A stretch of DNA of 30,702 nt from Methanobacteriota archaeon (GCA_020696385.1 JAEHCQ010000010.1:1-30702), one strand, 5' to 3'; shown: positions 1-30,625, counted from the first letter of the stretch. Program-made: numbers and translations. The notes: generated by a model from the letters alone, not told the origin.

Positions 1-77
1 ATATATATTGTTAGGGTTCAGAGAATTGCTGGCTCCGATGTTTCGGGGTATGAAATCGCTGTTTTTGTCCCCGGGCG
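1..77 (+). repeat. Terminal direct repeat, left copy (circularisation overlap)
   Basis: atatatattgttaggg...tttttgtccccgggcg is identical to 30626-30702; 77 bp is a common assembler k-mer length. Confidence 0.97.
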
Positions 78-992
78 GAACATCGATGCATTTCTGTAAA
101 CCTCCGACATATCCACCAGGTCGATCCCCAGATATTCGATGGTCATGTTTATACTCGCATGGCCTAACATCTTGGACACTGTTATCAATGGTGGCTCTCT
201 CGGTTGTGGGTTCATCTGTAAGAGATTGAAGTAGGTTAATCTCGCCCCGGTTCGCCTCAGAGTGTGCGGGCTGACCTCCAGCCCTGCCCTCTCCCCGATG
301 CCTCTCACGGTGTTGTATATCTTTGTTTTCGAGGCTGGAACCAGACCCCACCGATATGAGTGGGTTAGCAATAGATTGTCGGGTATTGCCTGATCCTTTG
401 CTTTGGCTATCAGAGAATCCCGATAAGGTAGATACCTCTCCAGGACGGTTCTGGTCATTGGGTGAAACGGTAAGGTTCTCCATTTCCGGCCTTTGCTCAA
501 TACTGTGACAGTATTGTTCTGGAAGCTCTCCGGATATTTTAGGTTCCTGGATCCAATGGACCTTAACCACATTTCTAATAATAGATGGGTGATCATTTCC
601 TCCATTGGGGTTTCTATTGCTCCGAGGTAGCTTATCACTTCGGATTCTTGGAGCCAGTGGGCGTTTGGTCTTGGAGGCTTCTGGAAGTTCAGATATACCT
701 TTGTCATTTCTGGGTTCTCGGCCCATGTTAAGAATGTCTTGATTATCTTGGCCTCGAATTGGTAAGTGCTGATCGATACATCTTCTTTCCTTGCTTCCAG
801 AGTGACCATGAAGTCCTCTTTGGTGATCTTCAACGGCCTGGGGTGTATCCCTTGATCTGATAGGCGTTTCTGGAAGCCTGTTAATATGCTTCGGTATGTG
901 TCTATCGTCCTGGGGCTTCTGTTCCTCTCCTTCAATTCGCTTAGATATTTGTCCATTTGCCTTGTGTAAACTGTTTTGTAATTTCTTGGCAT
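18..992 (-). CDS. int: Tyrosine recombinase / site-specific integrase (full length)
   Basis: N-terminal core-binding region (YLSELKERNRSPRTIDTYRSIL). Catalytic set R (MWLRSIG), K (SKGRK), HxxR (PHTLRR), H (LGH), Y (TIEYL). Confidence 0.95.
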   Translation of the reverse strand: MPRNYKTVYTRQMDKYLSELKERNRSPRTIDTYRSILTGFQKRLSDQGIHPRPLKITKEDFMVTLEARKEDVSISTYQFEAKIIKTFLTWAENPEMTKVYLNFQKPPRPNAHWLQESEVISYLGAIETPMEEMITHLLLEMWLRSIGSRNLKYPESFQNNTVTVLSKGRKWRTLPFHPMTRTVLERYLPYRDSLIAKAKDQAIPDNLLLTHSYRWGLVPASKTKIYNTVRGIGERAGLEVSPHTLRRTGARLTYFNLLQMNPQPREPPLITVSKMLGHASINMTIEYLGIDLVDMSEVYRNASMFRPGTKTAISYPETSEPAIL

Positions 993-1037
993 TTGTATTG
1001 CCCCCTATTGGTGTGATAATATTAATTTGTTTCATGG

Positions 1038-1667
1038 TCACGCCTCCGCCTTGATGCCTCTGGCGTATTCGCGCCCCAGATCAATGATGTTCTTTGATCT
1101 TTCACCAACTCTCCTGGCCGGAGTGCCTGTATAAATGCCCCAGGGCTCCAGGTCTTTTGTTATGAGAGTGCATGAACCTGTGACCGATCCTTCTTTTATT
1201 GTTGTGCCTGGGTGGATTACTGAGTTTGTACCCATGACAGAGTAATCTTGCATTTCCACCACATCAGCCATGTTTGGCTTTCTGAATTTTGTGGGTACTG
1301 TTGGGCTTACCATGTATTCCCCTGTGAAATCATCTGAGCCAGTTATTACCCGGCATCCGGCTGTTAAAGAAGCGTAATCACCTATGATGAACTTACCGCC
1401 CCCAATGATGGAAACGAAAGAACAAATGTGTACATTTTTGCCTATCTCGATGCCCTGGCCTCCATAAATGAATGAAAAATCATCTATCTGGGTGTTATCG
1501 CCTATTTCTATGACTTCCGGCTTTACGATCTTGGCTAATGGGTGGATGGTGACATTCTCCCCGCATGATTTTAATAAAAGCTTTATATCGATCTCCCCAG
1601 ATCCTTTGCATTTATCACAAATTCGCCCCGCAAACTCCCCAGAGCCTCCGCAATTAGGGCAGTTCAT
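1038..1667 (-). CDS. Left-handed beta-helix (hexapeptide) sugar O-acetyltransferase with N-terminal CxxCxGxG zinc finger
   Basis: Hexapeptide repeats (IEIGDNTQIDDFSFI, IEIGKNVHI, IIGDYASL); C-terminal TKDLEPWGIYTGTPARRV; N-terminal CPNCGGSG...CDKCKGSG. Confidence 0.9.
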   Translation of the reverse strand: MNCPNCGGSGEFAGRICDKCKGSGEIDIKLLLKSCGENVTIHPLAKIVKPEVIEIGDNTQIDDFSFIYGGQGIEIGKNVHICSFVSIIGGGKFIIGDYASLTAGCRVITGSDDFTGEYMVSPTVPTKFRKPNMADVVEMQDYSVMGTNSVIHPGTTIKEGSVTGSCTLITKDLEPWGIYTGTPARRVGERSKNIIDLGREYARGIKAEA

Positions 1668-1801
1668 ACGATGCCTCCAAATTCGATGGTGTTTTCTTCT
1701 ACTTTTATTTTAGCGATGGTTCTTTTCTTAAAATCACACTCTGGGCAGTTGTGATCGTCACCTTTGAGGTTGTGGCAAACTGGACATTCTTCATTAATCA
1801 T
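1664..1801 (-). CDS. 45-aa zinc-binding micro-protein
   Basis: Manual translation MINEECPVCHNLKGDDHNCPECDFKK...; RBS GGGGGCGAG; ATGA overlap with next gene. Confidence 0.7.
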   Translation of the reverse strand: MINEECPVCHNLKGDDHNCPECDFKKRTIAKIKVEENTIEFGGIV

Positions 1802-1987
1802 TCACTCGCCCCCTTCTTTGTGTGTAGTGCCTATTATTTTTTGAATGCCCATTAATGCCAATAACAATGAAACAACTGCCAACAATATCGTATAGTACCA
1901 TTGCTGTACCTCGATAGAATTAATGGCAAATATTAATGCCATAGCAAAATACATTCCAGCATCTATAATCCTTAGTGCTATGCGCAT
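1802..1987 (-). CDS. Small two-TM membrane protein
   Basis: 61 aa with two hydrophobic segments; RBS and TGAATG junctions at both ends. Confidence 0.75.
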   Translation of the reverse strand: MRIALRIIDAGMYFAMALIFAINSIEVQQWYYTILLAVVSLLLALMGIQKIIGTTHKEGGE

Positions 1988-2164
1988 TCACTCGCCCCCT
2001 CTCTGCCTTGCCTCGATTGATGGGCAGATTGCTTCGGTATCGTAAACCTTATGTTCTGCCATGAAAATACAGGAATGACATATCATCCCGTCCCAGGTTG
2101 GATCTCCGCAAACTGGACATTCTGAGATACTACCGCCTAAAAGCACTGAGGATTCACCGACCAA
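1988..2164 (-). CDS. 58-aa CPxCG-type zinc micro-protein
   Basis: Manual translation from TTG after AGGAGG: ...ECPVCGDPTWDGMICHSC... Confidence 0.7.
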   Translation of the reverse strand: MVGESSVLLGGSISECPVCGDPTWDGMICHSCIFMAEHKVYDTEAICPSIEARQRGGE

Positions 2165-2182
2165 AATAATCCCTCCTTATGC

Positions 2183-2443
2183 TTATTCGTAGATTGAGCT
2201 TGCTTGCGACATTCCGAGATCGGATGCTGGCAAGTTGATTTCGTCAATCATTGATGGCTCGATGTGTTCGATGCTCTGGCCTGTTTGCCTCCAAACCTCG
2301 TAAAGATGCGGGTGATATTCCTCAAATTCGGAGATATGGCCTACAAACTTTTCATCGTATGTGCCATCCTCGTATTGAATGGCTATAATCAACATGGTTG
2401 GTGTAGCTTGCTCAACTTCTATCATACTTACTTGATTTTCCAT
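2183..2443 (-). CDS. Acidic hypothetical protein
   Basis: 86-aa ORF with upstream GAAGGAG RBS. Confidence 0.7.
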   Translation of the reverse strand: MENQVSMIEVEQATPTMLIIAIQYEDGTYDEKFVGHISEFEEYHPHLYEVWRQTGQSIEHIEPSMIDEINLPASDLGMSQASSIYE

Positions 2444-2970: not shown

Positions 2971-3128
2971 TGGGATACCTCTGGTTCGCTCAGTATCTCC
3001 TGGAGTTCCCTCATGGCCGTTTCTCTCAATAATTCAGATGCAAAAAGTAAATCTCCGAGGCTGATAATCTCAGGGTCTGTTATCAATATAAAACCATCAT
3101 CCAGTTTTATTGTTATTGTCCTGGTCAT
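2967..3128 (-). CDS. 53-aa hypothetical protein
   Basis: Manual translation MTRTITIKLDDGFILITDPEII...EVSQ; ATGA overlaps at both ends. Confidence 0.65.
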   Translation of the reverse strand: MTRTITIKLDDGFILITDPEIISLGDLLFASELLRETAMRELQEILSEPEVSQ

Positions 3129-3262
3129 TGCGCGACCATCCTCTTATCAATGGCTTCTCTGATCAATCCGCTAACATTTATTGATGGGTGTTTGTCCAGC
3201 CATGTCTTTTGATCGTGTCTTATGGTGGCGTTTATCCTTTCCATCTTTTCCGTCTTTGTCAT
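3125..3262 (-). CDS. Ribbon-helix-helix (CopG/Arc-like) regulator, 45 aa
   Basis: MTKTEKMERINATIRHDQKTWLDKHPSINVSGLIREAIDKRM: beta strand plus NVSGLIREAI helix. True start likely 3262 rather than 3496. Confidence 0.8.
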   Translation of the reverse strand: MTKTEKMERINATIRHDQKTWLDKHPSINVSGLIREAIDKRMVAQ

Positions 3263-3388
3263 TAGAGGGTATATTGCAGGGTGTGTATAAATACTTGTCG
3301 GTGTGCAAATAGCACTTTGCTTATTGTTACCAACCATTATGGATAAAATTATATATATACTGACATACCAATATACAAAATAGATAAA
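3263..3388. promoter_or_regulatory. Divergent promoter region between RHH and wHTH genes
   Basis: AT-rich, with TTATATATA at about 3349-3357 and TATAAATA at about 3286-3293, between head-to-head regulators. Confidence 0.6.
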
Positions 3389-3667
3389 ATGGAATATCAA
3401 AGAAGGGTTTGGGATCTCGAAAAGCAATCTGGCATCGTGAAATGCCTTATTGCCATGTGTGGTAAAGATAAACAAATGCTTTCGACAATCGCACATAAAA
3501 CGGAACTATCGACTACTGTATTGCATAGAGCAATCCAGAGGCTTATTGATTTAGAGCTGGTCGATCAAGATAGAAGCGATAAATTGAGAAGGTATTTGGT
3601 TTTGACAGATAAAGGTCAGAAAATTGCTGAAAAGCTTAAAGAGATTGATAAAATAATGATAGGATAG
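3389..3667 (+). CDS. Winged-helix (MarR/ArsR-like) transcription regulator
   Basis: LSTIAHKTELSTTVLHRAIQRLIDLELV...RRYLVLTDKGQKIAEKL. Confidence 0.88.
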   Translation: MEYQRRVWDLEKQSGIVKCLIAMCGKDKQMLSTIAHKTELSTTVLHRAIQRLIDLELVDQDRSDKLRRYLVLTDKGQKIAEKLKEIDKIMIG

Positions 3668-3881: not shown

Positions 3882-3885
3882 AAGA

Positions 3886-4038
3886 TCAGGCCACCGGGTT
3901 AAAACATATGGTTATATCTGGATCTTCTTTTGTGTATTTCCATAGTATTTCAGCCAATAGCTTCGCATCGTCCGGCTCCATATCTCCGATCTCTAAGGTT
4001 AATTTATCACCCTCAAATATTGATATGCTCGATCTCAT
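3886..4038 (-). CDS. 50-aa hypothetical protein
   Basis: MRSSISIFEGDKLTLEIGDMEPDDAKLLAEILWKY...; follows the DUF3560 stop directly, with AAGGAG RBS. Confidence 0.6.
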   Translation of the reverse strand: MRSSISIFEGDKLTLEIGDMEPDDAKLLAEILWKYTKEDPDITICFNPVA

Positions 4039-5313
4039 TTAATCAGCTCCTTTGATTGTGGCTGGCTTAAATGCTTCTTTAAGCCCCTGGTATTCCTCGC
4101 CCTTGTCATCTATCACCGAAATGAAGTTATCGTCCGTATGGGCTTCTTTCACGGTGTATTTGTCACCTATCGCGCTGGTTACTATGTCACCTTTGACGAA
4201 TTGCATATTAACCCCTATCGTGATATTGTTTATTAGTTTACCCTCTATATCATTTAATTCGATTTCGGTTTCCTGTATCGGTTCGGGTTCCTCCGAATCA
4301 TGGAATATTGGAACTTGGTTTAATTCCAGCTCGCCCATGATCGCGCTGTAATCATCCTGTGATATTTCAGTTTCCTGGGGTTGATCTGGCTGATGTGAGG
4401 GGGACTTCGCCCCGGTTAATCGCTTGGCTGTATCGGTTGCGTATCTCGATCTTTTCCTCTGCCAAGCCCCCTCATTCCTGGACCATCTAAAACCATTTGA
4501 TTTTAATTTATTCCTGGTTTCCTGGTCTGGGATATCATCATATATTATTTGTAATCTGTTTATTTCCACATTATCAATTATGACCCCATCATTAAATTTT
4601 ATCTCCTGGGTTTCGTCTTGGGCTTGGGATTCTAATAAAGATAGTCTATCTTTCATCCTTTTCATATTGCTGTTATTGTTGGTTAGCTCGAAGGATGGAA
4701 ACCCAACACGGCCACAAAAATCGGGTTCTCTCAGCTTAATTATATTGCTTTCGGATATTCCCATATCCTTTAATTTCGCGTTTCCTTTGTCCTGGTCCTT
4801 TAGTCTGATTGCTGAATTAACTGCTTTCATTAATGTTTGTTTCTCCTGGGCCTTTTCAATCTTTGCTTTTAGCTTAATAATTGCGTCTTGATCGTCTGAG
4901 GAAATGGATTTATTCGCTTTCACGGTTTCGGCTCGCTGGCTGTAATATTGCGCTTTATCGCTTTCCTCTATGCTTTTTCTTATTGCGCTGTGTGATCTTT
5001 TTATTGCATTCCTGTGCTTCGATTCTGAATGATGGCCTACTAAAATGGGCTGACCGAAAACTATACCATCCGTGTAACTGTGAGATCGTTTCATGGATGA
5101 TGTGGCCCTCTCGCTGGCCTTTTGTGATCGTTCCTCGTACCTCTCAGCTTTGGCCTCTATGCGTTCCTGATATTCTGTTATATTCCCGGTTTCCTCTCTC
5201 CATTCTAATAGAGCTTTAAGATATTCCTGGGAGCTGTTATAATCGCTTTCCTGGGGTTGTGGTGTTTCCTGGAGTTGATCGAACTTGGTAAAATCAGTTT
5301 GCATTTTAATCAC
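4039..5313 (-). CDS. DUF3560-domain protein (polyvalent-protein-associated domains)
   Basis: Signature FGQPILVGHHSESKHRNAIKR...KAQYYSQRA; second domain NRLQIIYDDIPDQETRNKLKSNGFRWSRNEGAWQR. Confidence 0.85.
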   Translation of the reverse strand: MIKMQTDFTKFDQLQETPQPQESDYNSSQEYLKALLEWREETGNITEYQERIEAKAERYEERSQKASERATSSMKRSHSYTDGIVFGQPILVGHHSESKHRNAIKRSHSAIRKSIEESDKAQYYSQRAETVKANKSISSDDQDAIIKLKAKIEKAQEKQTLMKAVNSAIRLKDQDKGNAKLKDMGISESNIIKLREPDFCGRVGFPSFELTNNNSNMKRMKDRLSLLESQAQDETQEIKFNDGVIIDNVEINRLQIIYDDIPDQETRNKLKSNGFRWSRNEGAWQRKRSRYATDTAKRLTGAKSPSHQPDQPQETEISQDDYSAIMGELELNQVPIFHDSEEPEPIQETEIELNDIEGKLINNITIGVNMQFVKGDIVTSAIGDKYTVKEAHTDDNFISVIDDKGEEYQGLKEAFKPATIKGAD

Positions 5314-6012: not shown

Positions 6013-6044
6013 TTTATCATTCCTCTAACCCATGTATATCACTT

Positions 6045-6062
6045 GTAGTATATAAAGATTAC
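6045..6062 (-). promoter_or_regulatory. Archaeal TATA box for the 6012-3735 operon
   Basis: Minus-strand TTTATATA at 6056-6049, about 37 bp before the ATG at 6012. Confidence 0.6.
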
Positions 6063-6151
6063 TGTAACATTTCGATACATTCCACTCTATAAGCATAATA
6101 ATAGTATAGTGATAATATAGAAGTGAAATAGTATAGTATCAGTATGATCTT

Positions 6152-6202: not shown

Positions 6203-6478
6203 TTATAATCTGTCCTTTCTGCTCATATCGGATCGGTTCCTTCGCGTTTCCGTGTATCTTCTCCCACTCTTGGAAACTCTCCGGCCTGGTTTCATTGCGG
6301 TTCTTTGACGGTCTTTTTTTACGCTTCCGATCTTCCCGGTCTGTGGTAAAGTCCGAATATGTGATTTTACCCTTACGGTTCTCTTTTTGGCCGGGGCCTT
6401 CTTTCTCTTTGCTGGAGCTTTTCTTTTGGCTCCTAACTTGGTTTGCTTGGTTGATTTCCTTTTTGCGATAATTTTCAC
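6203..6478 (-). CDS. Highly basic small protein, putative nucleoprotein / DNA-condensing protein
   Basis: 36 of 91 residues are K/R; histone-H1-like KAPAK repeats; last gene of the structural operon. Confidence 0.8.
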   Translation of the reverse strand: MKIIAKRKSTKQTKLGAKRKAPAKRKKAPAKKRTVRVKSHIRTLPQTGKIGSVKKDRQRTAMKPGRRVSKSGRRYTETRRNRSDMSRKDRL

Positions 6479-6493: not shown

Positions 6494-9268
6494 TTATAAT
6501 GCTCCGATTTGATTCCATGCTGATAACATTCCGAATAAAAGGAATAAACATAGCCCTGTAATGAAGATAAACCCACCTTTGGCTTTCTGCTTTGTTCCAA
6601 CATACAAACCCATTCCAAGAAGGGCTAATACACCTCCCAGGGCTATTAATGAGCCGTTTATAGATAATGGGGAACCTCCGGGCGGGTTCGCAAAGAGCCA
6701 TGATGTGTCTGATTCCTCCGGCTCGTAGATGTGGAAGTATATGCCGTATTGCACTTCCTCGCCGTTCCCCAAGTCTGGAACTGCTGTATGTTGTATCAAT
6801 ACCGTAGATCCCGAAACTGTGAAATCGTTATTTTCCCTTGAAAGTGCGCGATCATTGGTTAGATCCACGATGCGAACTTCATCCGGGTTTATCTGCCCTC
6901 CAGCATCCAGGATATTGATTTGTAGGTCCCCTGTAAATACCAGGCTTTTCGGGTTCTGCCAAATAGCCAATCCATAATAGTATGAGATCGTTCCGAGGTC
7001 TTTCATGTAATATGGGGCTTGAATGTTTGTTATCTCAGTTTGTGCATTGGTTCCGTTGTCAGCGTAGTATTTGAAGGTGAATGATCTCGTATCTGTTGTA
7101 GTCGCGGAATTGTTTAAATGGTCAAAATTCATGTGATAACCACCCATAGAAACGAGATAATGAGTGCCATGAGTGAGCCATGCGCTATTATCGATATCTC
7201 GCAATACCGCGCTTTGAAGGTCTGGAGTTAAACCGCCCTCGCTTTCCGGCACGAATGGAACCATCCAAGATATATCATACCAATCGAAAGGCGTGGTGTT
7301 ATTCAATACCAGGCTTGTATCATATAATTGGCTTGTCGCGTAGTATGTCCACCAGAATACTGCCGAATTTCTAAATGTAGTCTTTCTCACTATGCTTATG
7401 GATCTATTCGCCCAGTATGTGAGGTTTTCCGAATCGCTGTAAGCTGTTATGTCCACCAATCCCGGTATGTAGGTTAAATTAAGGAAATTAACGCCTGTTG
7501 CTGTGACATTCAGCATTATGTTTGTCGAATAGTTCCCGGAGATATACAGTTCATCGGTTAAGATTGTTGTTGTCCCGGCTGATGGGGTGGGGTCGTAGAG
7601 TGTACCCGCTTGGCCATTGACTGAGTTTAATGTGCTGGCCTCAGTGACGGCGTAAGGATGAAGCAATACGCCATCGTCTATGATTTCATTAGAAGGTTCT
7701 GTACCTGATCTTGTCAATGGTTCTATACCTTCAACCGGAGCAACTGGGAGATTCTCACCGATAACTAAAACACTGGGGGTAACCCAGGATTCTATCGTGT
7801 TTATGGTGATCGTGTTAGAATTGATATTTGTGGATATTATCTCGATCTGATTATTGCCTATGTTAATTGTGTATGTGGCATCAATCGTGAGATTATAAAA
7901 AGTTGTGGCTGATACTGTGGTCGAGCCGTTGGCTGTGCTGTCCAGCCAATCGAAACGGAACATATACAAACCCTCCCTAACTGCCATTTCCTTTAATTCC
8001 TCACTTGGGCAGTGGTCTTGATAGGGTGTGCCTGTTGAATTGTAGTAAATCGCGTATGCTGTGGTATCTGTGCGGAAGCTCTTTATGTTCATCTGGTAAA
8101 CTGGCACACTAACAGATATATCCATGTCTAAGGCATTGGCCACGAATGAAGTATTTGTTATGTGATTGTTGAAATAATCCAAAACTGTTACTGTGTAGGT
8201 ATCCCCATAGGTAACTTGATAATCTGGATTCCATACCCTTGAAGCTGTTGTATTATCGTATGAAGTGCCTGTGTTTATCGCTACTTGCCACTTTTCCCAA
8301 AAGAAGCCCTCGCCCAGTGTGGAATGATAAAGGGCTATGTGGATTGTGGTTTCGACCAGTGCCTTTTCTCTCAAAAACCACATACTGTAATATGCCTTTT
8401 CGTAGTTGATCGTGACATTATAAAAGCCAGTGCCATAATCTGTCACTGTGGCTGGCGGGATGATCGACTGGTATTCCATGCCGGAATCTACCGAGAAATT
8501 GATATAATCCTGTTGAGCTACCCAGTAATCGAATCGAATTTGCTCATGTGTGGCGTTCCAGCTTGATATGTAAGCCGGGTATCCGTTTACAGTTTCCCAG
8601 GTCGCGCCATCGACATATACCATTTCAGCTCCACTTATCGGCTCCGAAACTATTTCAATGTATGGGTCATAAGACGATTCCGCCGTGTAGAATGTTATTT
8701 GCTGTCTGTCTGTTGGTGTCGAGGCATCGTTTGAAGCTGTTAAAAAGTATTGGGTGTTTCCTGTTTTATCTATCTTGGAAGTGTCCAGAGATAAAGATAT
8801 CCAATCCCCGCCAGATATAGCTGTGGTGTCTGCAATAATGCCCTCGTAGGTTCCTGTCGCGTTCCAATCGTCCTGGTCTAATGCCACGCCGTAATCTGTG
8901 TTTGTTACTTCTATTTGGAAGTTTGCGGGCGGATAAATTAAGTTCACTCTCAGATATAGGGTTGCACTTATTATGCTGTCCGTGTCCACGATTGCCGAAG
9001 TGTCGAAAGTCAGGAATGATCTATAAGTGTAATATGCTGGAGTTGGTATTAATCTTTGCCCCAGGTTCATACTTGTTGCTGTATCGACCACTGTATTATT
9101 TATTCCGCTTAATGCCTTCGAGTAGGTTTCATCATAACAGTTTATGGAGCCATCCATAGCTGATGTTGATGGAAAGTCCACTGTGGACCCCTGCGCGTTC
9201 TCTGTCATTATAGGTATTGACCCGGCCAGCATGACAAACACCAATACCAAAATTGTTAATTTCTTCAT
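6494..9268 (-). CDS. Large type I membrane surface protein (putative spike) with N-terminal DNRLRE/CBM96-like domain
   Basis: Signal peptide; YRSFLTFDTSAI...IISATLYL...WISLSL...DPYIEI pattern; many N-x-S/T sequons; two C-terminal TM helices. Confidence 0.85.
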   Translation of the reverse strand: MKKLTILVLVFVMLAGSIPIMTENAQGSTVDFPSTSAMDGSINCYDETYSKALSGINNTVVDTATSMNLGQRLIPTPAYYTYRSFLTFDTSAIVDTDSIISATLYLRVNLIYPPANFQIEVTNTDYGVALDQDDWNATGTYEGIIADTTAISGGDWISLSLDTSKIDKTGNTQYFLTASNDASTPTDRQQITFYTAESSYDPYIEIVSEPISGAEMVYVDGATWETVNGYPAYISSWNATHEQIRFDYWVAQQDYINFSVDSGMEYQSIIPPATVTDYGTGFYNVTINYEKAYYSMWFLREKALVETTIHIALYHSTLGEGFFWEKWQVAINTGTSYDNTTASRVWNPDYQVTYGDTYTVTVLDYFNNHITNTSFVANALDMDISVSVPVYQMNIKSFRTDTTAYAIYYNSTGTPYQDHCPSEELKEMAVREGLYMFRFDWLDSTANGSTTVSATTFYNLTIDATYTINIGNNQIEIISTNINSNTITINTIESWVTPSVLVIGENLPVAPVEGIEPLTRSGTEPSNEIIDDGVLLHPYAVTEASTLNSVNGQAGTLYDPTPSAGTTTILTDELYISGNYSTNIMLNVTATGVNFLNLTYIPGLVDITAYSDSENLTYWANRSISIVRKTTFRNSAVFWWTYYATSQLYDTSLVLNNTTPFDWYDISWMVPFVPESEGGLTPDLQSAVLRDIDNSAWLTHGTHYLVSMGGYHMNFDHLNNSATTTDTRSFTFKYYADNGTNAQTEITNIQAPYYMKDLGTISYYYGLAIWQNPKSLVFTGDLQINILDAGGQINPDEVRIVDLTNDRALSRENNDFTVSGSTVLIQHTAVPDLGNGEEVQYGIYFHIYEPEESDTSWLFANPPGGSPLSINGSLIALGGVLALLGMGLYVGTKQKAKGGFIFITGLCLFLLFGMLSAWNQIGAL

Positions 9269-14054: not shown

Positions 14055-14080
14055 TAACCCCAGGACATGAGGCGATATTA

Positions 14081-15919: not shown

Positions 15920-15920
15920 A

Positions 15921-16088: not shown

Positions 16089-16090
16089 GT

Positions 16091-16552: not shown

Positions 16553-16556
16553 ATTA

Positions 16557-17330: not shown

Positions 17331-17374
17331 TCATCGACACCCTCCAGGGTTGTTTATTTAGTGCCATTTCTTTT

Positions 17375-18928: not shown

Positions 18929-19248
18929 ATATCATCGATAGATATAAGAAAAAAGAGATTGAAGAATGGCATTATTATTATAAAAAGATGGCGCTGAGAA
19001 GCGATAAGAAAAACACCATTAGACATAATAAAATTATGATGGTGATAGGGTTTGCTGGATCTATGTTCGTTTACGCAATGGTTTTTTATCCCAGTTATAT
19101 ACCTATTGATTCTCCACTTAATAACGGTTGGTTGATGCTGGCTTTGATATGCTACACTGGGCTATCTATCGGCACTTATGATGCCATGTACTCTGAAATA
19201 AGATATCTCAGAGGTTGGGTTAAACACCTTAAAGGGAAGGTGGAATGA
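18925..19248 (+). CDS. Two-TM membrane protein with SPLNNxW loop
   Basis: 107 aa; FYPSYIPIDSPLNNGW between TM helices. Confidence 0.8.
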   Translation: MNIIDRYKKKEIEEWHYYYKKMALRSDKKNTIRHNKIMMVIGFAGSMFVYAMVFYPSYIPIDSPLNNGWLMLALICYTGLSIGTYDAMYSEIRYLRGWVKHLKGKVE

Positions 19249-21041: not shown

Positions 21042-21595
21042 TGGAAGAAGAAATCGTAAACTCTGGGGTTGGAGAATCGGCGGATCGTATTACAACGGTT
21101 CGCCGAGAGGTCATAAAGAAAGAGAAAGAAATTTCAGAGTGCGCCGACCCATCAGAGAAGGATGATAAGTATGGTATCCTAATTAATATGAAGCTCCGGC
21201 AAGTCAAAAGAATGATCGAACAATCTGAGGAAGATGGGTATGATCTCGAAAATGGGAAAACACTCGAAGAAGCTGAAAGAGATTATGCTTCTTTTATCCG
21301 CGATCTGAAAATGATTAGAAAGCCCGATGTCACCAGTGAGCCGACAATGAGGGGGCGATATCTGGCCACGAACATATACATAGACAATGAGTTGTATTCT
21401 TGCGCATATAATGATAATTCTCTCGAAATGTTCAAGAACCTGGCGGAAGTCCAAGCCTATGAAAGAAAGTGCGAGGGTTACGCCTTGCTCGATGTTCGGC
21501 TCAATGAATATATAGATGTTGGGTGGGACAATGATGATTCTGATTCGAGTATGACGGCAGATAAACTGATCGGGAGGGTTCGCAATTCAGCCTGA
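21041..21595 (+). CDS. Acidic hypothetical protein
   Basis: 184 aa; TAATG coupling. Confidence 0.78.
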   Translation: MEEEIVNSGVGESADRITTVRREVIKKEKEISECADPSEKDDKYGILINMKLRQVKRMIEQSEEDGYDLENGKTLEEAERDYASFIRDLKMIRKPDVTSEPTMRGRYLATNIYIDNELYSCAYNDNSLEMFKNLAEVQAYERKCEGYALLDVRLNEYIDVGWDNDDSDSSMTADKLIGRVRNSA

Positions 21596-21695
21596 CCCTA
21601 ACGAATCAAAGTTCGCCAGGGAGCAGGGGCTTATCGCCGAGAAGATCACCAGAGCTTTTCCGCGCCTGGTTCGGAATGTCGAAACCTATGAGGAT

Positions 21696-23102
21696 ATGTT
21701 AAGCATAATATCAAAGATATTCTGCCCGCATGAGCCGAGAATTGGCAATGTGCAATCTTGGGTTGAAATGATATCTGAATACAAAAACGCCCTTGATGAT
21801 TTCGGGGAAAAGAAATATCCTTTCCCCTGGATGGTTCCCGGCCTTTTAACATTGTTCGAGGAATCTGCTTATATCCAGTTCGCATTGTTCAAGCAAAATA
21901 ATCTTAACCTAACGCAAACATCATTATCCAAGCTGGAGGATCCCACGCTTGGCCGGAGGAACTTCCGAGGCATGGCAGAGGATTATTTCATACTTGGAAT
22001 GAGTGCAGAGGGTGGGGGGATAGTAACTGGGCCTAAAGGCGCGGGAAAGTCTGAATTTGTCGTGCAGAATGTTATTTGCCCATCCTTGGAATTAGATAAT
22101 ATCCAGGTTGTCCACAATATGAATATCATCGACCCGCGCGAAGTCTGGAAACCAGGAAAGGGGCAATACCCTTATTGTATCCTGGATTATTCAGATATTC
22201 CTAAAAATGCGCCCTTCCTGGATAACTGCCATTACGCGACATCGATAGAGGATGCTTTGATAATGATAATCACCCACGCGCTTAGGGGCATCCGGGAAAC
22301 TGGCAAGCCATACCTTACCCTTTGGGTAGTGGATGAAGCCGGAATATCCAGATCCAAACAAAGGACCATGAGTAATAAAATGATGAATCAAAAACATATT
22401 ACTCTCATATCTCGAAAATTAGGGTGTTATCAAGTAACGATATATCAGCTCGATGATGCCCCGAAAGAGGTTAAGGACTTCGCCAGCCACATATTCCATA
22501 AGCCTTCGGCCATCAATAAGACCCTGGTAGATTCAGAGATCCATACCGAGGCTTTCCGAGAATCCTCTATAATATCAGGATTGATGGATTGGACCAGGCT
22601 TAAAAAGATCGGGAGGCCGTATATCGAATATGGAACCTGGGATATATCCAATATGGATACAGATTTCGATGTACAGGGGCTATTTGACTATATGAACACT
22701 CTGGGCGGGTATGGTTCACCTGTGCAAACTGAAACTCAATTCATGGGAGCCCTGGATTTCATCAATAAGGTGAAAAATAGGAAATTGAAAGACTATGGCC
22801 GAGATCGGTTCTTGATTTATCTTTATCGGCTGTACAATTTCTGCAATGATGAATATGATAAGCTCCAAAGTGCAGGGAAGCTCTCGAAGTCTGAAAAGAT
22901 GTTAAAAGCCAAATGGAGGGCGATTGGGTCTTATTCATCCTGTGTTATCATGGCATCCCTGGAGTTTCCAGACGAGAAATGGTCAGAAATGAAGATCAAA
23001 AGGCAGTTCGATAGGGTGGCAGATCAATATCCCGATGCCCTGGAAAGGGAAGAACTGCCGGGAGATAACTACCCGATGGACATGGAGCCGATCCCTGTAT
23101 AG
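21696..23102 (+). CDS. P-loop ATPase of Zot/pleolipovirus-NTPase type (FtsK-HerA-related), putative assembly/extrusion motor
   Basis: Walker A GPKGAGKS; Walker B LWVVDEAG; downstream SRKLGCYQVTIYQ (Arg-finger then strand-Q pattern). Confidence 0.85.
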   Translation: MLSIISKIFCPHEPRIGNVQSWVEMISEYKNALDDFGEKKYPFPWMVPGLLTLFEESAYIQFALFKQNNLNLTQTSLSKLEDPTLGRRNFRGMAEDYFILGMSAEGGGIVTGPKGAGKSEFVVQNVICPSLELDNIQVVHNMNIIDPREVWKPGKGQYPYCILDYSDIPKNAPFLDNCHYATSIEDALIMIITHALRGIRETGKPYLTLWVVDEAGISRSKQRTMSNKMMNQKHITLISRKLGCYQVTIYQLDDAPKEVKDFASHIFHKPSAINKTLVDSEIHTEAFRESSIISGLMDWTRLKKIGRPYIEYGTWDISNMDTDFDVQGLFDYMNTLGGYGSPVQTETQFMGALDFINKVKNRKLKDYGRDRFLIYLYRLYNFCNDEYDKLQSAGKLSKSEKMLKAKWRAIGSYSSCVIMASLEFPDEKWSEMKIKRQFDRVADQYPDALEREELPGDNYPMDMEPIPV

Positions 23103-23526: not shown

Positions 23527-23799
23527 TTACTTGAATGGTTTTAGTTTCCTGGATACTATACCCAAATATTCTGGATTCTTGATTGGTCCCTCTTTGATCT
23601 TATTCAGATACGCCTCTGGCAACGGCCTGTTATCGTATATGTCGAGTATGATGTCCCTAACTACCTGGAGCTTTGTTTCATACATTCCGATGCCGTGGCT
23701 ATCGCTTTGTGCTGTCTTTTCCGCGATCATCACTCTGTAATATATTGCCCTCTTTTCCAAATTAGATAATATTTGTTCTGTGTTCATGTTAATCACCAT
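23527..23799 (-). CDS. Hypothetical protein downstream of the mini-recombinase
   Basis: About 86-90 aa; GGTGA RBS suggests start MNTEQ. Confidence 0.7.
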   Translation of the reverse strand: MVINMNTEQILSNLEKRAIYYRVMIAEKTAQSDSHGIGMYETKLQVVRDIILDIYDNRPLPEAYLNKIKEGPIKNPEYLGIVSRKLKPFK

Positions 23800-24374
23800 C
23801 CCTGTTTCTTCATAAGTTCGGCCCTGGACTTCGGCCCCATCCTATTATAGTATTCTCTAATTGTCTTTATTGATGTTCCTGTCATATCAGAGATATCGAT
23901 CTCAGGGATTCCCATTTCAAAGAATATCATAAAGGCCGTATGCCTCAGAGTGTTTGGGGAAAGTTCCGGGATGCCTATCTCTTTCCCGAATACCTGGAGC
24001 CTGTCGTATATTAATTGTTTCCAGGCAGAGTTTTTTCTTTTGGATCTTAGATTATCCTGGTAGAACTCGCTAACATCAAAATCTAAATGCTGGCTCTTGG
24101 GAACTCCCTTAACCTCTTTCCAATAGTTCTTTACTCCCTTCTTTGCCCCCTTCATCGGCCTGGACCATACTATTATCAATGTTCCGGCCTGGTTGATCTC
24201 TCTTATATTCGCCTCCGGCCTGTATAGTGCAGAGCTGTGCAACCCTGTATATCTGAACACTTTAAGGGCTTTGTAGAGCCATGCGCCCTTATTCGTGGTT
24301 CTGTCTATCTTAGATATTGCTGTATCTAATAAGATGACCTCCTGGGCTGTTAAGGGGTGTTTTGTTGACCCCAT
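23793..24374 (-). CDS. Catalytic-domain-only tyrosine recombinase (193 aa) with non-canonical active-site residues
   Basis: FRYTGLHSSAL (box I, R->H), LSPNTLRHT (box II, H->N), DMTGTSIKTIREYY (H->T, Tyr retained). Confidence 0.85.
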   Translation of the reverse strand: MGSTKHPLTAQEVILLDTAISKIDRTTNKGAWLYKALKVFRYTGLHSSALYRPEANIREINQAGTLIIVWSRPMKGAKKGVKNYWKEVKGVPKSQHLDFDVSEFYQDNLRSKRKNSAWKQLIYDRLQVFGKEIGIPELSPNTLRHTAFMIFFEMGIPEIDISDMTGTSIKTIREYYNRMGPKSRAELMKKQGW

Positions 24375-24702: not shown

Positions 24703-24789
24703 CTTACTGAATGTTTAATCAGTAAGTCCAGTAATGCACTAAAAGTATATAAACCTTACTGAACCATATTAAATGCTTATTTCAGTAAG
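24703..24789. promoter_or_regulatory. Promoter of the mini-recombinase operon flanked by two CTTACTGA inverted-repeat sites
   Basis: CTTACTGA-8bp-TCAGTAAG (24703-24726); minus-strand TTTATATA (24753-24746); CTTACTGAA-17bp-TTCAGTAAG (24755-24789). Confidence 0.7.
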
Positions 24790-25730: not shown

Positions 25731-25883
25731 TCATGGATTTACCTCTAAGAATTTATCTATTGGTATGGATTTGAGTTTTCCATTAGCCTTTGTTACTTTG
25801 ATATTCTGGCCAGCTATATCATTAATGATTGCTGAACAGTATATTTCCCTCACTCTACCAGTTTCTAAATATGTTATTTTCAT
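25731..25883 (-). CDS. 50-aa hypothetical protein
   Basis: MKITYLETGRVREIYCSAII...; GGAGG RBS; TGATG coupling. Confidence 0.6.
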   Translation of the reverse strand: MKITYLETGRVREIYCSAIINDIAGQNIKVTKANGKLKSIPIDKFLEVNP

Positions 25884-26455
25884 CAAATACGCCTCCTTAG
25901 ATACTCTTTTTCATCTGAATTTAAGAATTGAACTCCATACCTGGCGATCTTTAGCCCGATAGTGCCTTTACAATGGCGATGCTTGGAGAATCCCATGCAC
26001 TCACAATGTGTTAGGCCAGATTCGTATAATATCGAGCCGTGAAGCTTGTCGGGATCTTCTGAGCTTGGATGGGTGGTTGTGGCTATTGCCTTCGGCATAC
26101 TGCTTAATTGGATTGGCTGGCGGTCACGGTCTTGGAGATATACGCGCTTGTAGGTGTTTACCTTTCGCGATTTCTTCGATATTGTGCAGGGTCTTTTTTC
26201 ACATTTGACTATAAGGCAATATGGTGGCTGGCTGAGATCTGTTAGCCTGGGGCTTATTTGGTTAGGGTCCAGGGAGCTGTACATTCCTCTATCGTGGCCA
26301 TAGTGTAATAATTCCTTTGCTGTCGATCCCGGATACATTTCCACCATGTCCAGAGCTTTTAATCGCATTATGTCGGCTGTGCCATCCTGGATTATTTCAT
26401 CGAACACATCTAAGGATACAGGGTCGAATATGCGGGGCTTTGTGGCTATGGTCAT
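25883..26455 (-). CDS. wHTH protein with C-terminal SWIM-like zinc finger
   Basis: GSTAKELL...NQISPRLTDL...KRPCTISKK wHTH pattern; HCECMGFSKHRHCK; likely start MTIATKPR. Confidence 0.75.
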   Translation of the reverse strand: MTIATKPRIFDPVSLDVFDEIIQDGTADIMRLKALDMVEMYPGSTAKELLHYGHDRGMYSSLDPNQISPRLTDLSQPPYCLIVKCEKRPCTISKKSRKVNTYKRVYLQDRDRQPIQLSSMPKAIATTTHPSSEDPDKLHGSILYESGLTHCECMGFSKHRHCKGTIGLKIARYGVQFLNSDEKEYLRRRI

Positions 26456-26625
26456 GCGTACAACCCCCATGTGAGTGTTGTTGCCAAATTGTACATTGCC
26501 TGTAATAACGCTATGTGGATCGGTGTTTCAGGATATTCTTCCCTAATGCTTGCAGATTCCCACACGATTGATATGAATAATACAGTTATAAGGATGTATA
26601 TTATAAATGAGCCTGGGTGCATCAT
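26452..26625 (-). CDS. 57-aa membrane micro-protein
   Basis: MMHPGSFIIYILITVLFISIVW...; coupled at both ends. Confidence 0.6.
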   Translation of the reverse strand: MMHPGSFIIYILITVLFISIVWESASIREEYPETPIHIALLQAMYNLATTLTWGLYA

Positions 26626-26689
26626 GCTACTTCGACCCCCTTTACGAAAATGTTTAAACTGCCGTTCCATGGTGTTAACATTTTGATAA

Positions 26690-27688
26690 TCATGCGCACT
26701 CAACTCCTTCGTTTGGTCTTTCATCTGCTTTGAGGCCCGGGGGGATCGGGTCGGTTGGGGTGGGTGGTGTTGTTTGTTCTGGCTCTGGCTGATTGAATTT
26801 AGATAGTAAATCATTAAGAGCTTTCTTACTGTCTGCCTGGTCGTGTATAAGATTTGCTACCGTGGACATTAGTATATCATTCTGTGCGTGTAAGTATTGG
26901 AGCTCCTTCAACATCTTGTTTTGAATCTCAGGCATATCTTCCCAAGCCTGGACCTTCTCAGAAACTTCGGTAGGATCTGAGCCTTTGAAATTTATCTCAC
27001 CTTCAAGTTTGCTGGCATCCAAGTGTCCGCTTACATACCCATATTCACCATGTAGAGCTCTTGTTACTTCATCAGATATCTCTATTGTGATATTCTTTCC
27101 AGGTTCGCCAGTACCTAATATAAAACCGAATTGCCTTTGTAGTAGGTGAGCTCCACTATCGCATATTGCCCGGGCTCTCAATAGCAGGGTGTTCTTATCC
27201 TTGCCAATCATACTCAATGGCTCTATGGTCAGGCTGATCGGTTTACCGTCATTGGTTTCATTAAGTCGGATATTACAATCTTTCCAGTTATCGATCTTCT
27301 GGATCCAATTATTCATCTGAACTATGTTCGGGGTGAATATCTCGCCCTTCTTGATGATCGGGTATTTTACCGAATAACCTTCGAGAGAATAAATGGTCTT
27401 TTGAGATTGCAGAATATCGGGGTGTTCGAGAGTTATGCAATTTCGGAGTTCTGTTAGCTTCTGGCCTCCTTTGTATGTGAGGTCAAAAAGTTGAGGTCTT
27501 GTATTTGGGATCCTTAAAATAAGTTCTTCGTCATTTTCCAAAATATCTAACCATCTGCCTAAAGTTGGATTTGACACTTTCCCATTTTTGTTTAATGATG
27601 CCAATGCTCTTTTTCTGTCCTGTTTGTCTTTGAAAAGATTGAGTATTTTAAGCAGTTTCTTATCGTCTAATTCTCTTGGCCGGGCCAC
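26690..27688 (-). CDS. N-terminal winged-helix protein, putative replication initiator/regulator
   Basis: VSNPTLGRWLDILENDEELILR...FDLTYKGGQKL wHTH; C-terminal coiled coil and Pro-rich tail; adjacent iteron-like repeats. Confidence 0.75.
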   Translation of the reverse strand: MARPRELDDKKLLKILNLFKDKQDRKRALASLNKNGKVSNPTLGRWLDILENDEELILRIPNTRPQLFDLTYKGGQKLTELRNCITLEHPDILQSQKTIYSLEGYSVKYPIIKKGEIFTPNIVQMNNWIQKIDNWKDCNIRLNETNDGKPISLTIEPLSMIGKDKNTLLLRARAICDSGAHLLQRQFGFILGTGEPGKNITIEISDEVTRALHGEYGYVSGHLDASKLEGEINFKGSDPTEVSEKVQAWEDMPEIQNKMLKELQYLHAQNDILMSTVANLIHDQADSKKALNDLLSKFNQPEPEQTTPPTPTDPIPPGLKADERPNEGVECA

Positions 27689-28091: not shown

Positions 28092-28706
28092 TCATGCTGT
28101 GGCACTCTCCGATTGTGGTTCGGTAATATCTAACTGCAGTTTGTCTTTTTTGTAAATAGAAAAATAAGAAGTCAGATACACGCCTTTGTATATTCCGATT
28201 TGTGGGATGTCCCTTAACCAACCATACCCATTCCCATTTAATCGGATATAGATTTCATGGTTCCATGGGTGGGCTGATTTACAAATCAGTACACCACCAG
28301 GTTTTATTATTTTAGAAATCTGCTCTAGAGATTCATCCAGGAATTTGGGGAAGTCCTCTTTTTCCATGGGGCAGTATTTCTGAATCATGTCGTTTAACCC
28401 ACCTGATTTCGATGGCCACGGCGGATCGTAAACATATCCGTCTGCAGTGTTAAATAGTTCTTCTGGAGGTTCTGTAATATCGCATATATAATCCAAATCC
28501 TTTAATTCCCTGATATCGCCAAATATGAAATTATAATCTGTATCGTCCAGGGTTCTATTTCCATTCATCTTCCGATACATCCGCCTCTCGCCAGCGCATA
28601 AATCGATTATTGTGGCTGGAGGTGGTATGAAGTGTCTTAGTATCTTGGCGAACTCTGTACCAGTGTTGGCTTTCCAGCCGATTATCACATTTCCAACTCG
28701 GCTCAT
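28092..28706 (-). CDS. Orphan amino-DNA methyltransferase (m6A/m4C type)
   Basis: Motif I IIDLCAG; motif IV YVYDPPW; IIKPGGVLICK. Confidence 0.85.
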   Translation of the reverse strand: MSRVGNVIIGWKANTGTEFAKILRHFIPPPATIIDLCAGERRMYRKMNGNRTLDDTDYNFIFGDIRELKDLDYICDITEPPEELFNTADGYVYDPPWPSKSGGLNDMIQKYCPMEKEDFPKFLDESLEQISKIIKPGGVLICKSAHPWNHEIYIRLNGNGYGWLRDIPQIGIYKGVYLTSYFSIYKKDKLQLDITEPQSESATA

Positions 28707-29288: not shown

Positions 29289-29328
29289 GCCCCGGCCCCC
29301 TTCAAAAAAATAAAGGGTGGGCTATTCA

Positions 29329-29517
29329 TTAATGTTTGAATATGCCCATTAGTTGAGGTAGTGCTTCCCTTCCGATATGACCCTCTACAATGTGCCTTAT
29401 GTCCGTTGAATCGGCCTCTGGATGGCTTTCCATGTAAAGGATTGTATCTAACGATCCCCTCAAATACTCTATACTTAAACTCCCCTCGTACACTTCTATC
29501 ATGGGTTGATGCCCCAA
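29329..29517 (-). CDS. Hypothetical protein
   Basis: 62 aa with protein-like composition; TATTTAAATA upstream at about 29540-29549. Confidence 0.5.
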   Translation of the reverse strand: MGHQPMIEVYEGSLSIEYLRGSLDTILYMESHPEADSTDIRHIVEGHIGREALPQLMGIFKH

Positions 29518-29707
29518 AACACATCAACCGTGTTAAGGTATTTAAATATTGAGTATGGGCGGGGTTTGGTGGCAGTAAACTGACTTCAAAAGTGGGGAGG
29601 GGAGAGAATAAGACCGGGGCATCAACACCATGATCTAATCCTTCCCCTTTGGTCCCCATGTTACGATTGTTCATTTTGCTATTAATAAATTCCCCTAACA
29701 TTTTCTT

Positions 29708-29782
29708 AAAAAAAAGGGTGGCCTGACCGGAAAGAAAGAGTTGAAAAACACGGGGAGAGGAAGCCCCTGGAAAGGTCAGGCC
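29708..29782 (-). terminator. Long-loop hairpin + T8 tract (terminator or small RNA)
   Basis: GGCCTGACC/GGTCAGGCC (29720-28/29774-82); inner GGGG/CCCC; minus-strand ACCCTTTTTTTT. Confidence 0.55.
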
Positions 29783-29949
29783 GTTGATCGTCATTTATGG
29801 TTGCCCCTGAGTGGTGGGGCTTGACCCTGGTGGGGTTTCTTCACATTCATGTGGTTTGGATTTGTCATATCTCTCACCGCATAATCTACAATCTGTGACA
29901 ATTGTGGGTATGTAACCAGTGCCATTACTTGCGAATCCATCTGAATAGC

Positions 29950-30210
29950 TCATAATGAACCCCCTTTGATTTTAGTGACAAAAGAACCCGCGCCAATCGT
30001 TGAACTCCTGGCGAGGCTTCCACCTTCGTTCTCTGCTTCGTGCATGATGTACAGATCCACTTCATCCCTCTGGATTGGTGTGTTTATGCCGTCATTCGCT
30101 TCCAGCCAATCGAGATATGCATCGTGCGGAACATCTGGAATCCCCATATCGAACCATAACTTTTGTGCGTATGCCTCCGGCTCCATCCCTGGGAGTGGGT
30201 TGGATATCAT
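29950..30210 (-). CDS. Hypothetical protein
   Basis: 86 aa; GGAGG RBS; ATGA-coupled. Confidence 0.7.
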   Translation of the reverse strand: MISNPLPGMEPEAYAQKLWFDMGIPDVPHDAYLDWLEANDGINTPIQRDEVDLYIMHEAENEGGSLARSSTIGAGSFVTKIKGGSL

Positions 30211-30452
30211 GCGGTGGCCTCCCCAACTGGCTTTAATTGGATTTGTAAAATCATATCATCCTCGAACATGGATGATCCTCTGATTTCCTCTGGTAAATGC
30301 ATCCGTGGGATTAAACGAACATGAGCTATATCGACCCTCATAGTTTCCCCAGTTTCCTCGCAAATCAGCGTTAAATGGGCATCCCTGTACTCGATTGTCT
30401 TGGTTCCGTTCTTGATTTGGTCAAAATATCTCTTTTTGATTGGTAGTTTCAT
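30207..30452 (-). CDS. ASCH-domain protein
   Basis: MKLPIKKRYFDQIKNGTKTIEYRD (GxKxxExR signature); AGGAGG RBS. Confidence 0.85.
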   Translation of the reverse strand: MKLPIKKRYFDQIKNGTKTIEYRDAHLTLICEETGETMRVDIAHVRLIPRMHLPEEIRGSSMFEDDMILQIQLKPVGEATA

Positions 30453-30625
30453 AAAATTCCTCCTGTTATTGATTGCTCGATGTGATCTGAAATAAAATTA
30501 TCTGGGCTTTCGCTGATATTGACTGAATTTTCCTCGTTGAAATCTTTTACAATTTTAACATAGGCCAGGGACAAAAACCCGAAATTCGTACCCCATGCCT
30601 CTATGTCTGGCTTATAGGGTAATGT

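Follow-up and report, generated by a model that had tools for sequence, protein, structure and literature searches.

We analysed a 30,702-nt contig from a Methanobacteriota archaeon (GCA_020696385.1 JAEHCQ010000010.1:1-30702; hereafter the window, meaning the whole stretch at its full length). At roughly even probability, we read it as a temperate pleolipovirus-like element in its episomal state, a circle of double-stranded DNA, with a non-methanogenic Thermoplasmata archaeon as its host. It would most probably be a virus that has a host-derived membrane vesicle, and no protein capsid, as its particle. We infer three traits for the element: it is a virus rather than a plasmid, it is enveloped, and it is capsid-less. 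We regard it as most likely a large relative of the pleolipoviruses, on the grounds that the two have related ATPases, found in the same gene order.

The two ends of the contig share 77 identical nucleotides, and we therefore read it as a closed circle with a unique sequence of 30,625 bp (positions 1-30625; 30626-30702 repeat 1-77). It forms the entire contig C1 of a 2.28-Mb, 50-contig genome (G000) rated 94.5% complete, with a GC content of 42.3% against 44.5–46.4% in the large host contigs, and it contains no N and no tRNA gene. Its repeats include neither iterons nor a convincing origin. We read about 46 open reading frames (ORFs), of which six run on the + strand (18425-23102) and the other 40 or so on the − strand. 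An A/T-rich divergent promoter region of 253 nt with TATA-like boxes (18172-18424) separates the two gene sets, and similar boxes precede two further − strand genes (6040-6070 and 24737-24767; repeat family D12). At least one transmembrane (TM) segment was found in 19 of the 42 translated ORFs by a Kyte–Doolittle scan, a multi-pass CPBP protease being one more, and secreted and membrane proteins together take up more than half of the element's coding capacity. Family scans covered 40 ORFs with Pfam (E ≤ 0.01, or E ≤ 1 for one set of ten ORFs), 40 with PHROGs and ten with NCBIfam. In the Pfam and PHROGs scans of 40 ORFs we found no capsid, portal, terminase or polymerase family, and no HUH or Rep_trans replication protein (Rep), relaxase, VirB4 or TraG family. 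An initial annotation of this DNA had described a circular 30.6-kb element that carried an integrase and lacked a recognisable capsid, portal, terminase, polymerase or rolling-circle Rep, and all of this was borne out. Its two divergent operons are present as well, with more membrane-protein genes than the approximately 14 that it had counted; its 'extrusion-type ATPase' is an ATPase by its Walker A and B motifs, and of the extrusion type we saw weak Zot-like signals only. Conjugation machinery, which it had named as an alternative, was not found: the sole ATPase is VP8-like, and the 40 ORFs scanned contain no VirB4, TraG, relaxase or VirB6-like Pfam family.

The last + strand gene encodes this VP8-like P-loop NTPase of 468 aa (21696-23102), with the Walker A motif GPKGAGKS and the Walker B motif VVDEAG. 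It is, as judged by profile comparison, the one gene of the element with a sequence-level link to pleolipoviruses. The protein has no Pfam or PHROG match and belongs to a rare family: among 5.8 billion proteins we found seven relatives at 36–49% identity, and a profile of the window ATPase and its close relatives (A1), run against 1.84 billion proteins, retrieved 36 cluster representatives at E ≤ 1e-3. The longest contigs for the 20 ATPase clusters that we looked up ranged from 1.6 to 36.2 kb, the larger ones measuring 36.2, 31.8, 30.7, 29.8, 27.1 (a further member of the cluster of relative P0004), 24.5, 24.4 and 24.3 kb. These sizes fit an ATPase family living on window-sized elements, with the proviso that most metagenomic contigs are short anyway. 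With tblastn, the ATPase had no match in phages or in 72,556 plasmid records, and related-locus searches with the ATPase, A1 and P0004 returned nothing from viral, metagenome or genome contig sets.

Nine of the 32 family members scanned match Pfam Zot weakly (best 1.6e-5) and nine of 32 match a KaiC-type ATPase family, a PDB sequence search with A1 gave weak AAA and PilT matches only, and the nearest ESM-atlas clusters of the ATPase (score 0.94) are mostly virus-labelled, with Zot on 12–54% of their members. Like the Zot and pI ATPases (PF05707), the family has a P-loop core followed by an RKLG-like motif. Unlike them, the window ATPase carries its P-loop at residue 112 rather than at the N terminus and has no membrane helix, and M13 pI is unmatched after Walker B.

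The link to pleolipoviruses appears when profiles are compared. Using hhalign, we aligned a profile of 32 ATPase family sequences (A3) with a profile of pleolipovirus NTPases (A4; HRPV-1, HHPV-1, HRPV-2, HRPV-9, HRPV-10 and His2), and obtained a match of 97.8% (E 9.3e-13) over 279 columns. HRPV-1 VP8 alone matched A3 at 89.3% over 162 columns. As controls, M13 pI alone scored 35% over 113 columns, and ORF375 of the spindle-shaped virus PAV1 alone scored 79%, confined to 33 P-loop columns. With the ATPase alignments divided into three blocks, the one after Walker B (window residues 223–340) matched the same VP8 block at 93.4% (E 2.6e-7, 89 columns), compared with 0.6% against pI and 1.3% against PAV1 ORF375; the N-terminal blocks gave no match. 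Because the post-Walker-B block matches VP8 and neither pI nor PAV1 ORF375, we take the homology to be specific and to reach beyond nucleotide binding. Among single family members, the ATPase of relative G140 matched the VP8 profile at 94.6% over 220 columns.

By their membrane topologies, the genes ahead of the ATPase follow a pleolipovirus-like order. In the window, five genes (18425-21595, + strand; 167, 107, 310, 287 and 184 aa) precede it, none with a family match in Pfam or PHROGs. The 107-aa product has a TM segment; the 310-aa protein has a signal-like segment and a TM segment near residue 164; the 287-aa protein has two N-terminal TM segments and no homologue in a word-indexed protein search; and the 184-aa protein is acidic and soluble. 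The order is thus signal-plus-anchor, two-TM, 184 aa and NTPase, with the spike-like genes on the opposite strand. A search with A3 matched 20 of 401 same-class genomes, G000 counted; the single window ATPase as query found no match in 60 relatives. We read the surroundings of 11 relative loci, 12 with the window. At nine of the 12 (the window, G140, G064:C92, G087:C7, G071, G252, G270, G276 and G120), a protein of 250–401 aa with an N-terminal TM hairpin lies on the ATPase strand within three ORFs upstream. In G140, G064, G087 and G071, as in the window, a signal-like, later-anchored protein of 200–330 aa comes just before the two-TM protein, and in seven relatives a protein of 460–1547 aa with a C-terminal anchor lies further upstream on the ATPase strand. 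The clearest case is G071:C111, with a 1405-aa protein (signal and C-terminal anchor), then one of 202 aa (signal and anchor), a two-helix protein of 270 aa and the ATPase, which corresponds in order and nearly in size to VP4, ORF6, ORF7 and VP8 of HRPV-1, and also to the annotated ORF29–31 and ORF33 of His2 (ORF30 with signal and anchor, ORF31 with two TM segments, ORF33 the ATPase).

Some of these loci were seen in wider context. In the closed 1.86-Mb Thermoplasmata genome G140, an integrated element of about 20 kb (approximately C1:517450-537800) lies next to tRNA-Asn/tRNA-Met. It encodes an integrase, an ASCH-like protein and the VP8-like ATPase, as well as two membrane proteins, a basic protein of 90 aa and an anchored one of 1547 aa, and includes low-GC stretches (26–30%). 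The integrated element at G087:C7 is about 12 kb; both lengths are rough estimates from ORF content. The window is larger than either. The two-TM proteins of G252:C54, G270:C1, G276:C2 and G120:C2 are mutually homologous (E 1e-74 to 1e-7), and three spike-like proteins of the same four loci are homologous too (E 1e-32 to 3e-17). By sequence similarity these loci define a tighter subgroup, two of whose genomes are mcrA-positive. mcrA is present in G270 and G252, and none was found in G140, G071 or G087.

Several observations weigh against a pleolipovirus-like element in a Thermoplasmata host. The direct VP8 signals of the window are weak, at 25% over 33 columns for its ATPase alone and 21% over 42 columns for the narrow-subfamily profile A1, and it is therefore the more distant members of the family that carry the link. 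The argument from gene order depends on topologies read from a crude Kyte–Doolittle hydropathy scan. The pattern is absent at G209:C29, the best ATPase match among the genomes, and is not clearly shown by G059:C4; at G347 the ORF caller missed the ATPase ORF, and the locus is counted among the 12. In hhalign, the window proteins matched neither profiles of pleolipovirus VP3, VP4, ORF6 and ORF7 nor the spike and two-TM profiles of the Thermoplasmata relatives. The best window protein against the VP3 profile (five members) reached 6.4% over nine columns, and the 241-, 284-, 310-, 517-, 924- and 1187-aa proteins reached at most 0.6% against the VP4 profile (six members). The VP4 test is insensitive, because the spikes of mcrA-positive relatives also fail against the haloarchaeal VP4 profile (at most 1.1%) despite VP4-like fusogens being reported in Methanomassiliicoccales proviruses, as excerpts of the literature have it. 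The element is also about twice the maximum size of pleolipovirus genomes (30.6 kb against 7–17 kb in the excerpted source cited below). With tblastn, its DUF3560 protein matched 531 plasmid records (at most 45% identity; 265 of them conjugative) as against 17 phage records. Finally, the assignment of the element to its host rests on binning. The element–host tetranucleotide correlation (r = 0.762) falls under all 66 same-size host chunks (minimum 0.771, mean 0.963), the host has no CRISPR array and no Cas1, and between element and host we found no exact match of 20 nt or more and no att-like match.

According to the excerpts of PMC10919331 that we draw on, pleolipovirus genomes are 7–17 kb long and share a conserved block of two structural proteins and an NTPase, with VP4 as the hallmark; the same excerpts, citing Medvedeva 2023, place VP4-like proviruses in Methanonatronarchaeales and Methanomassiliicoccales. 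In the excerpts of PMC10599561, 184 pleolipovirus-like genomes all come from hypersaline sites, the 100 judged complete average 13.5 kb, and those bearing an integrase are larger. Within the limits of our own literature searches, we found no pleolipovirus-like element of about 30 kb described, and none in non-methanogenic Thermoplasmata.

The element resembles the Pleolipoviridae in its VP8-type NTPase, homologous at profile level including the post-Walker-B region, and in the two-helix and signal-plus-anchor proteins that precede it. It also shares the big, C-terminally anchored glycoprotein-like genes, the lack of a capsid gene and, with the temperate members, an integrase. It differs from them in size, in lacking detectable VP3, VP4, ORF6 or ORF7 similarity, and in that its spike-like genes form a divergent operon of their own, 18 kb long, which encodes three large proteins as well as a CPBP protease and a small, very basic protein. 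Its host belongs to the Thermoplasmatota, not the Halobacteria, and its ATPase has 468 aa compared with 317–400 aa. The comparison with pleolipoviruses made by the initial annotation thus gained substance, through the VP8-related ATPase family and the order and topology of the genes ahead of the ATPase. Its description of the lineage as 'apparently new' found no support in that form: the ATPase and gene order are shared with integrated elements in other Thermoplasmata, mcrA-positive ones included, and VP4-like Methanomassiliicoccales proviruses are already published, going by the same excerpts of PMC10919331. The mcrA-positive loci of G270 and G252, which carry ATPase, spike-like and two-TM genes in pleolipovirus order, are probably elements of this provirus kind, and the ATPase family of the window includes both. 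The host class is the same, whereas the window host has no mcrA and the window's membrane proteins have no detectable similarity to those of the two loci. The NTPase module and host class tie the element to the known pleolipovirus-like proviruses; its genome size, separate multi-spike operon, CPBP protease and basic protein set it apart from them.

This divergent − strand operon runs leftwards from the promoter region. Its first gene (17446-18171) encodes a 241-aa protein with an N-terminal two-TM hairpin and a beta-rich domain, without a significant family. A CPBP/Rce1-like intramembrane protease of 257 aa follows (16557-17330; PF02517 2.8e-9; myxosortase core NF040914 6.8e-5, below cut-off); an ORF at 16549-17367 was rejected as a wrong-frame shadow over this gene. 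In the next block (12875-16570), small proteins with two or three TM segments (13579-13854, 13851-14054, 15635-15934 and 15921-16118, by TM scan) lie interspersed among secreted or anchored products of 284, 517 and 159 aa. In all, the element encodes six small proteins of 61–105 aa with two or three hydrophobic helices; no paralogy was found among the small membrane proteins or among the large proteins. The 517-aa protein (14081-15634) has no homologue among 5.8 billion proteins in a word-indexed search, no PDB match and atlas scores below 0.8. Two larger − strand genes follow. One encodes a secreted protein of 1187 aa (9273-12836) with a G8 (beta-helix) domain (PF10162 1e-6), a PKD domain (PF18911 4.9e-9) and a C-terminal two-helix anchor, which makes it a candidate receptor-binding or glycan-binding spike. 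The other encodes a secreted, glycoprotein-like protein of 924 aa (6494-9268) with, by TM scan, an N-terminal hydrophobic segment and a C-terminal two-helix anchor; it has a DNRLRE-like domain (NF033679 5.4e-6, below cut-off) and no Pfam or PHROG match.

The 924-, 1187- and 517-aa proteins all have a signal-like N-terminal segment and end in a helix, a short basic loop and a helix. They contain 20, 28 and no N-x-S/T sequons, respectively. Large proteins with two C-terminal helices were also found in G252, G270 and G120. The shared C-terminal hairpins and the CPBP protease of the same operon may together serve sorting or maturation. The gene that immediately follows the one for the 924-aa protein encodes a very basic 91-aa protein (6203-6478, − strand; 36 K+R against 4 D+E) without a family match, a candidate DNA-condensing protein. 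In the G140 element the 90-aa basic protein (29 K+R) likewise immediately follows the largest glycoprotein gene.

Following the pleolipovirus-like reading, the + strand operon (18425-23102) would be the morphogenesis module: its NTPase and two membrane proteins would collect the genome at the cell membrane and power its budding. The envelope would come from the divergent operon of 18 kb: the three large sequon-rich or Ig-like proteins with their C-terminal helix hairpins would act in host recognition and fusion, the CPBP protease could trim the glycoprotein anchors, and several small membrane proteins would come from the same operon. The 91-aa basic protein may serve to compact a DNA of such unusual length. 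The DUF3560 protein, a methyltransferase, small zinc-ribbon and helix-turn-helix (HTH) proteins, an acetyltransferase and the integrase would act in maintenance, host-surface modification and integration. Relative to described pleolipoviruses, the genome is about twice as long, and the spike genes would have moved to a separate, expanded operon. No other prokaryotic viruses than pleolipoviruses are known to be, in essence, infectious membrane vesicles, and we know of no Thermoplasmata virus isolated outside methanogenic gut lineages. If the reading is correct, pleolipovirus-type virion building would be neither restricted to very small genomes nor confined to halophilic or methanogenic archaea. 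A step further, the window and the contigs of about 24–36 kb with the closest ATPases could form a family-level lineage of 'complex' budding Thermoplasmata viruses that arose from pleolipovirus-like ancestors and doubled their genome. Their envelope genes would have been gathered in a dedicated operon with several different spikes, and they would have gained a CPBP intramembrane protease that matures the hairpin-anchored glycoproteins and a protamine-like basic protein that condenses the DNA. We consider this doubtful; if true, no archaeal virus of the membrane-vesicle type before it would have had a nucleoprotein and encoded its own protease for envelope maturation. The rare ATPase family, with its 36 cluster representatives, offers a practical marker with which to find more such elements.

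The element could instead be a plasmid, either an integrative one with cell-surface genes or one moved in vesicles like pR1SE, reportedly a haloarchaeal plasmid transferred between cells in membrane vesicles. The element would then share its VP8-like ATPase with pleolipoviruses through an exchange of modules between the two kinds of element. We think this rather unlikely, and still the most credible of the alternatives. The family scans brought up no virion hallmark, the DUF3560 protein is plasmid-typical by the record counts given above, and plasmids ordinarily carry genes such as those for the methyltransferase, the acetyltransferase, the integrase and the small regulators. Pleolipoviruses are themselves thought to have arisen by recombination with archaeal plasmids, according to the excerpts of PMC10599561. 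Against a plasmid, the Pfam scans of the element's ORFs brought out neither a replication initiator nor a partition system, and likewise no relaxase and no type IV secretion ATPase. The ATPase is unmatched in the plasmid records and is placed in the gene order of a virion-formation module, and a coding capacity devoted by more than half to secreted and membrane proteins is unusual for plasmids. The element sharpens the question of where the boundary lies between membrane-vesicle plasmids and enveloped viruses.

The remaining genes lie outside the two membrane-protein blocks, on the − strand unless stated. A tyrosine recombinase/integrase of 324 aa (18-992) matches PF00589, the Phage_integrase catalytic domain, above the Pfam cut-off (3.6e-12), as well as PF02899 (1.3e-4) and phrog_1 (1.3e-22). 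It matches the NCBIfam archaeal XerA model at 5.6e-27, below the cut-off of that model, and shares 29% identity with its counterpart in the integrated element at G087:C7. A 405-aa ORF wrapping the origin was discarded as a wrong-frame shadow over this gene. A short second tyrosine-recombinase-like protein of 193 aa is encoded at 23793-24374 (PF00589 2.2e-4, below cut-off; phrog_1 8e-5). A hexapeptide-repeat (sugar) acetyltransferase with an N-terminal CxxC zinc ribbon lies at 1038-1667 (PF00132 1.1e-11; WcaF family 2.3e-14, below cut-off), and a DNA methyltransferase-like protein of 204 aa at 28092-28706 (phrog_954 6.6e-7). An ASCH-like fragment and a zinc ribbon were also recognised in the family scans.

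The DUF3560 protein (424 aa; 4039-5313) matches PF12083 (9.6e-38), phrog_6744 (9.8e-64) and phrog_19458, annotated 'primase' (5.7e-41). Over about 58% of its sequence it is 43–45% identical to proteins of bacterial plasmids of 40–44 kb (one of 61 kb), some of these matches being annotated ArdC, and it is 35% identical to a match in a Caudoviricetes genome assigned to Methanofastidiosa. Such similarities suggest a mobile-element gene transferred between domains; the protein is a promiscuous mobile-element protein with a possible role in replication or establishment.

A putative DNA-binding pair of 195 aa and 332 aa, the latter with an N-terminal helical (HTH-like) domain, is encoded at 25883-27688 and has no Pfam, PHROGs or NCBIfam family and no tblastn match in phages. 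A single-sequence AF2 model of the 332-aa protein has a pLDDT of 42.3 and is confident for residues 1–52 only; the protein is a candidate replication or regulatory protein. The excerpts of PMC13107129 describe the Rep-Arvir (DUF7845) initiator as used by many archaeal viruses and plasmids. Neither the 332-aa protein nor any other scanned ORF had a Pfam match to it (PF25227), and hhalign of the 332-aa protein against PAV1 ORF528, a Rep-Arvir protein, gave 0.1%. At 3125-3667, a 123-aa ORF with a ribbon-helix-helix-like C terminus (3125-3496; probably overlong) and an overlapping winged HTH-like ORF on the + strand (3389-3667), both recognised by eye from the translations and without a family match in Pfam or PHROGs, form a probable divergent regulator pair.

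A spindle-shaped virus akin to PAV1, TPV1 or the fuselloviruses, with a small two-helix protein as the major capsid protein and lectin-like proteins as tail fibres, seems improbable to us. The six small proteins with two or three hydrophobic helices would suit it, as would a circular genome with an integrase, and PAV1, of the spindle viruses of Thermococcales, as annotated interleaves small membrane, large lectin-like and P-loop proteins in a similar way. The likeness ends at the level of the proteins. None of the window proteins matched a PAV1 protein at E ≤ 0.01 in blastp (best 0.044 and 0.045, over 18–31 residues), the small membrane proteins reached at most 2.8% against PAV1 ORF121, and there is no match to ORF528. 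The window's ATPase family shares the P-loop alone with ORF375, whereas it matches VP8 beyond the P-loop.

Still less probable is a sphaerolipovirus- or turrivirus-like virus, icosahedral and containing an internal membrane, whose jelly-roll capsid proteins had diverged too far to be recognised from sequence. Alphasphaerolipovirus genomes measure about 28–31 kb, a range close to the size of the element, and many membrane proteins and very large spike-like proteins would agree with such a virion. Foldseek matches of the ATPase model include STIV2 B204 and A32-like packaging ATPases; the PDB and BFVD neighbours of this AF2 model (pLDDT 62.7) are generic RecA-fold proteins at TM scores of 0.2–0.5, and the profile link leads to VP8. 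All beta-rich candidates are membrane-anchored, and no PHROG or Pfam capsid family was found.

The bin that holds the element encodes TBP and an unsplit RpoB. The best two matches of an RpoB fragment, at 87% and 82% identity, are in metagenome-assembled genomes (MAGs) labelled Methanomassiliicoccales archaeon and Methanobacteriota archaeon, and the 80 loci listed as matches are in archaeal MAGs mostly labelled Thermoplasmata, Thermoplasmatota or Methanomassiliicoccales. We found no mcrA in the genome and no 16S rRNA gene in the assembly. On these gene comparisons the bin is a Thermoplasmata archaeon, and a non-methanogenic one, in line with the Thermoplasmata-like host proposed initially.

That the contig was misbinned and comes from another organism of the same community has only a slight probability. 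It would account for the deviating tetranucleotide composition and for the missing CRISPR, att and paralogue links (of the element's genes, just the integrase, the acetyltransferase and one large protein gave matches elsewhere in the host, all weak), and the DUF3560 protein is nearest to bacterial plasmid versions. For the link between contig and bin, which we rate as moderate, speak the archaeal-type TATA-like boxes ahead of the operons, the integrase most like archaeal XerA, the presence of the ATPase family in the 20 same-class genomes, and a short hairpin copy. This is a 38-nt stretch (29982-30019, inside the ORF 29950-30210) that shares 89% identity with the first of the hairpins in a repeat dispersed in the host genus. 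The repeat has 23 matches in G000 and 6–22 in each of the three other genomes of the genus, and none in 37 other relatives. The blastn alignment of the window copy is gapped, and a substitution-only search missed that copy.

Further features of the host genome and the gene junctions were recorded in passing. The dispersed repeat is about 220 nt long and non-coding, with two hairpins, the second showing compensatory changes between copies; G000 C48:16919-17159 and C22:273214-273422 are among the copies. It has no Rfam family, and neither the window nor the two host loci searched with it matched Rfam at the gathering threshold. Four short arrays in G000 detected by a k-mer scan for CRISPR (C22:179355-179593, C22:197886-198014, C33:151406-151735 and C46:40505-40723) are tandem repeats rather than CRISPR arrays, because their 'spacers' are identical. 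In the element, a perfect 19-nt inverted repeat (4035-4053 and 20163-20181) is the same gene junction on opposite strands, with a stop after KGAD overlapping the next ATG, and many − strand genes finish in ATA or AGA directly ahead of the next start. These recurring junctions have the look of translationally coupled genes, the ribosome-binding site lying inside the gene before.

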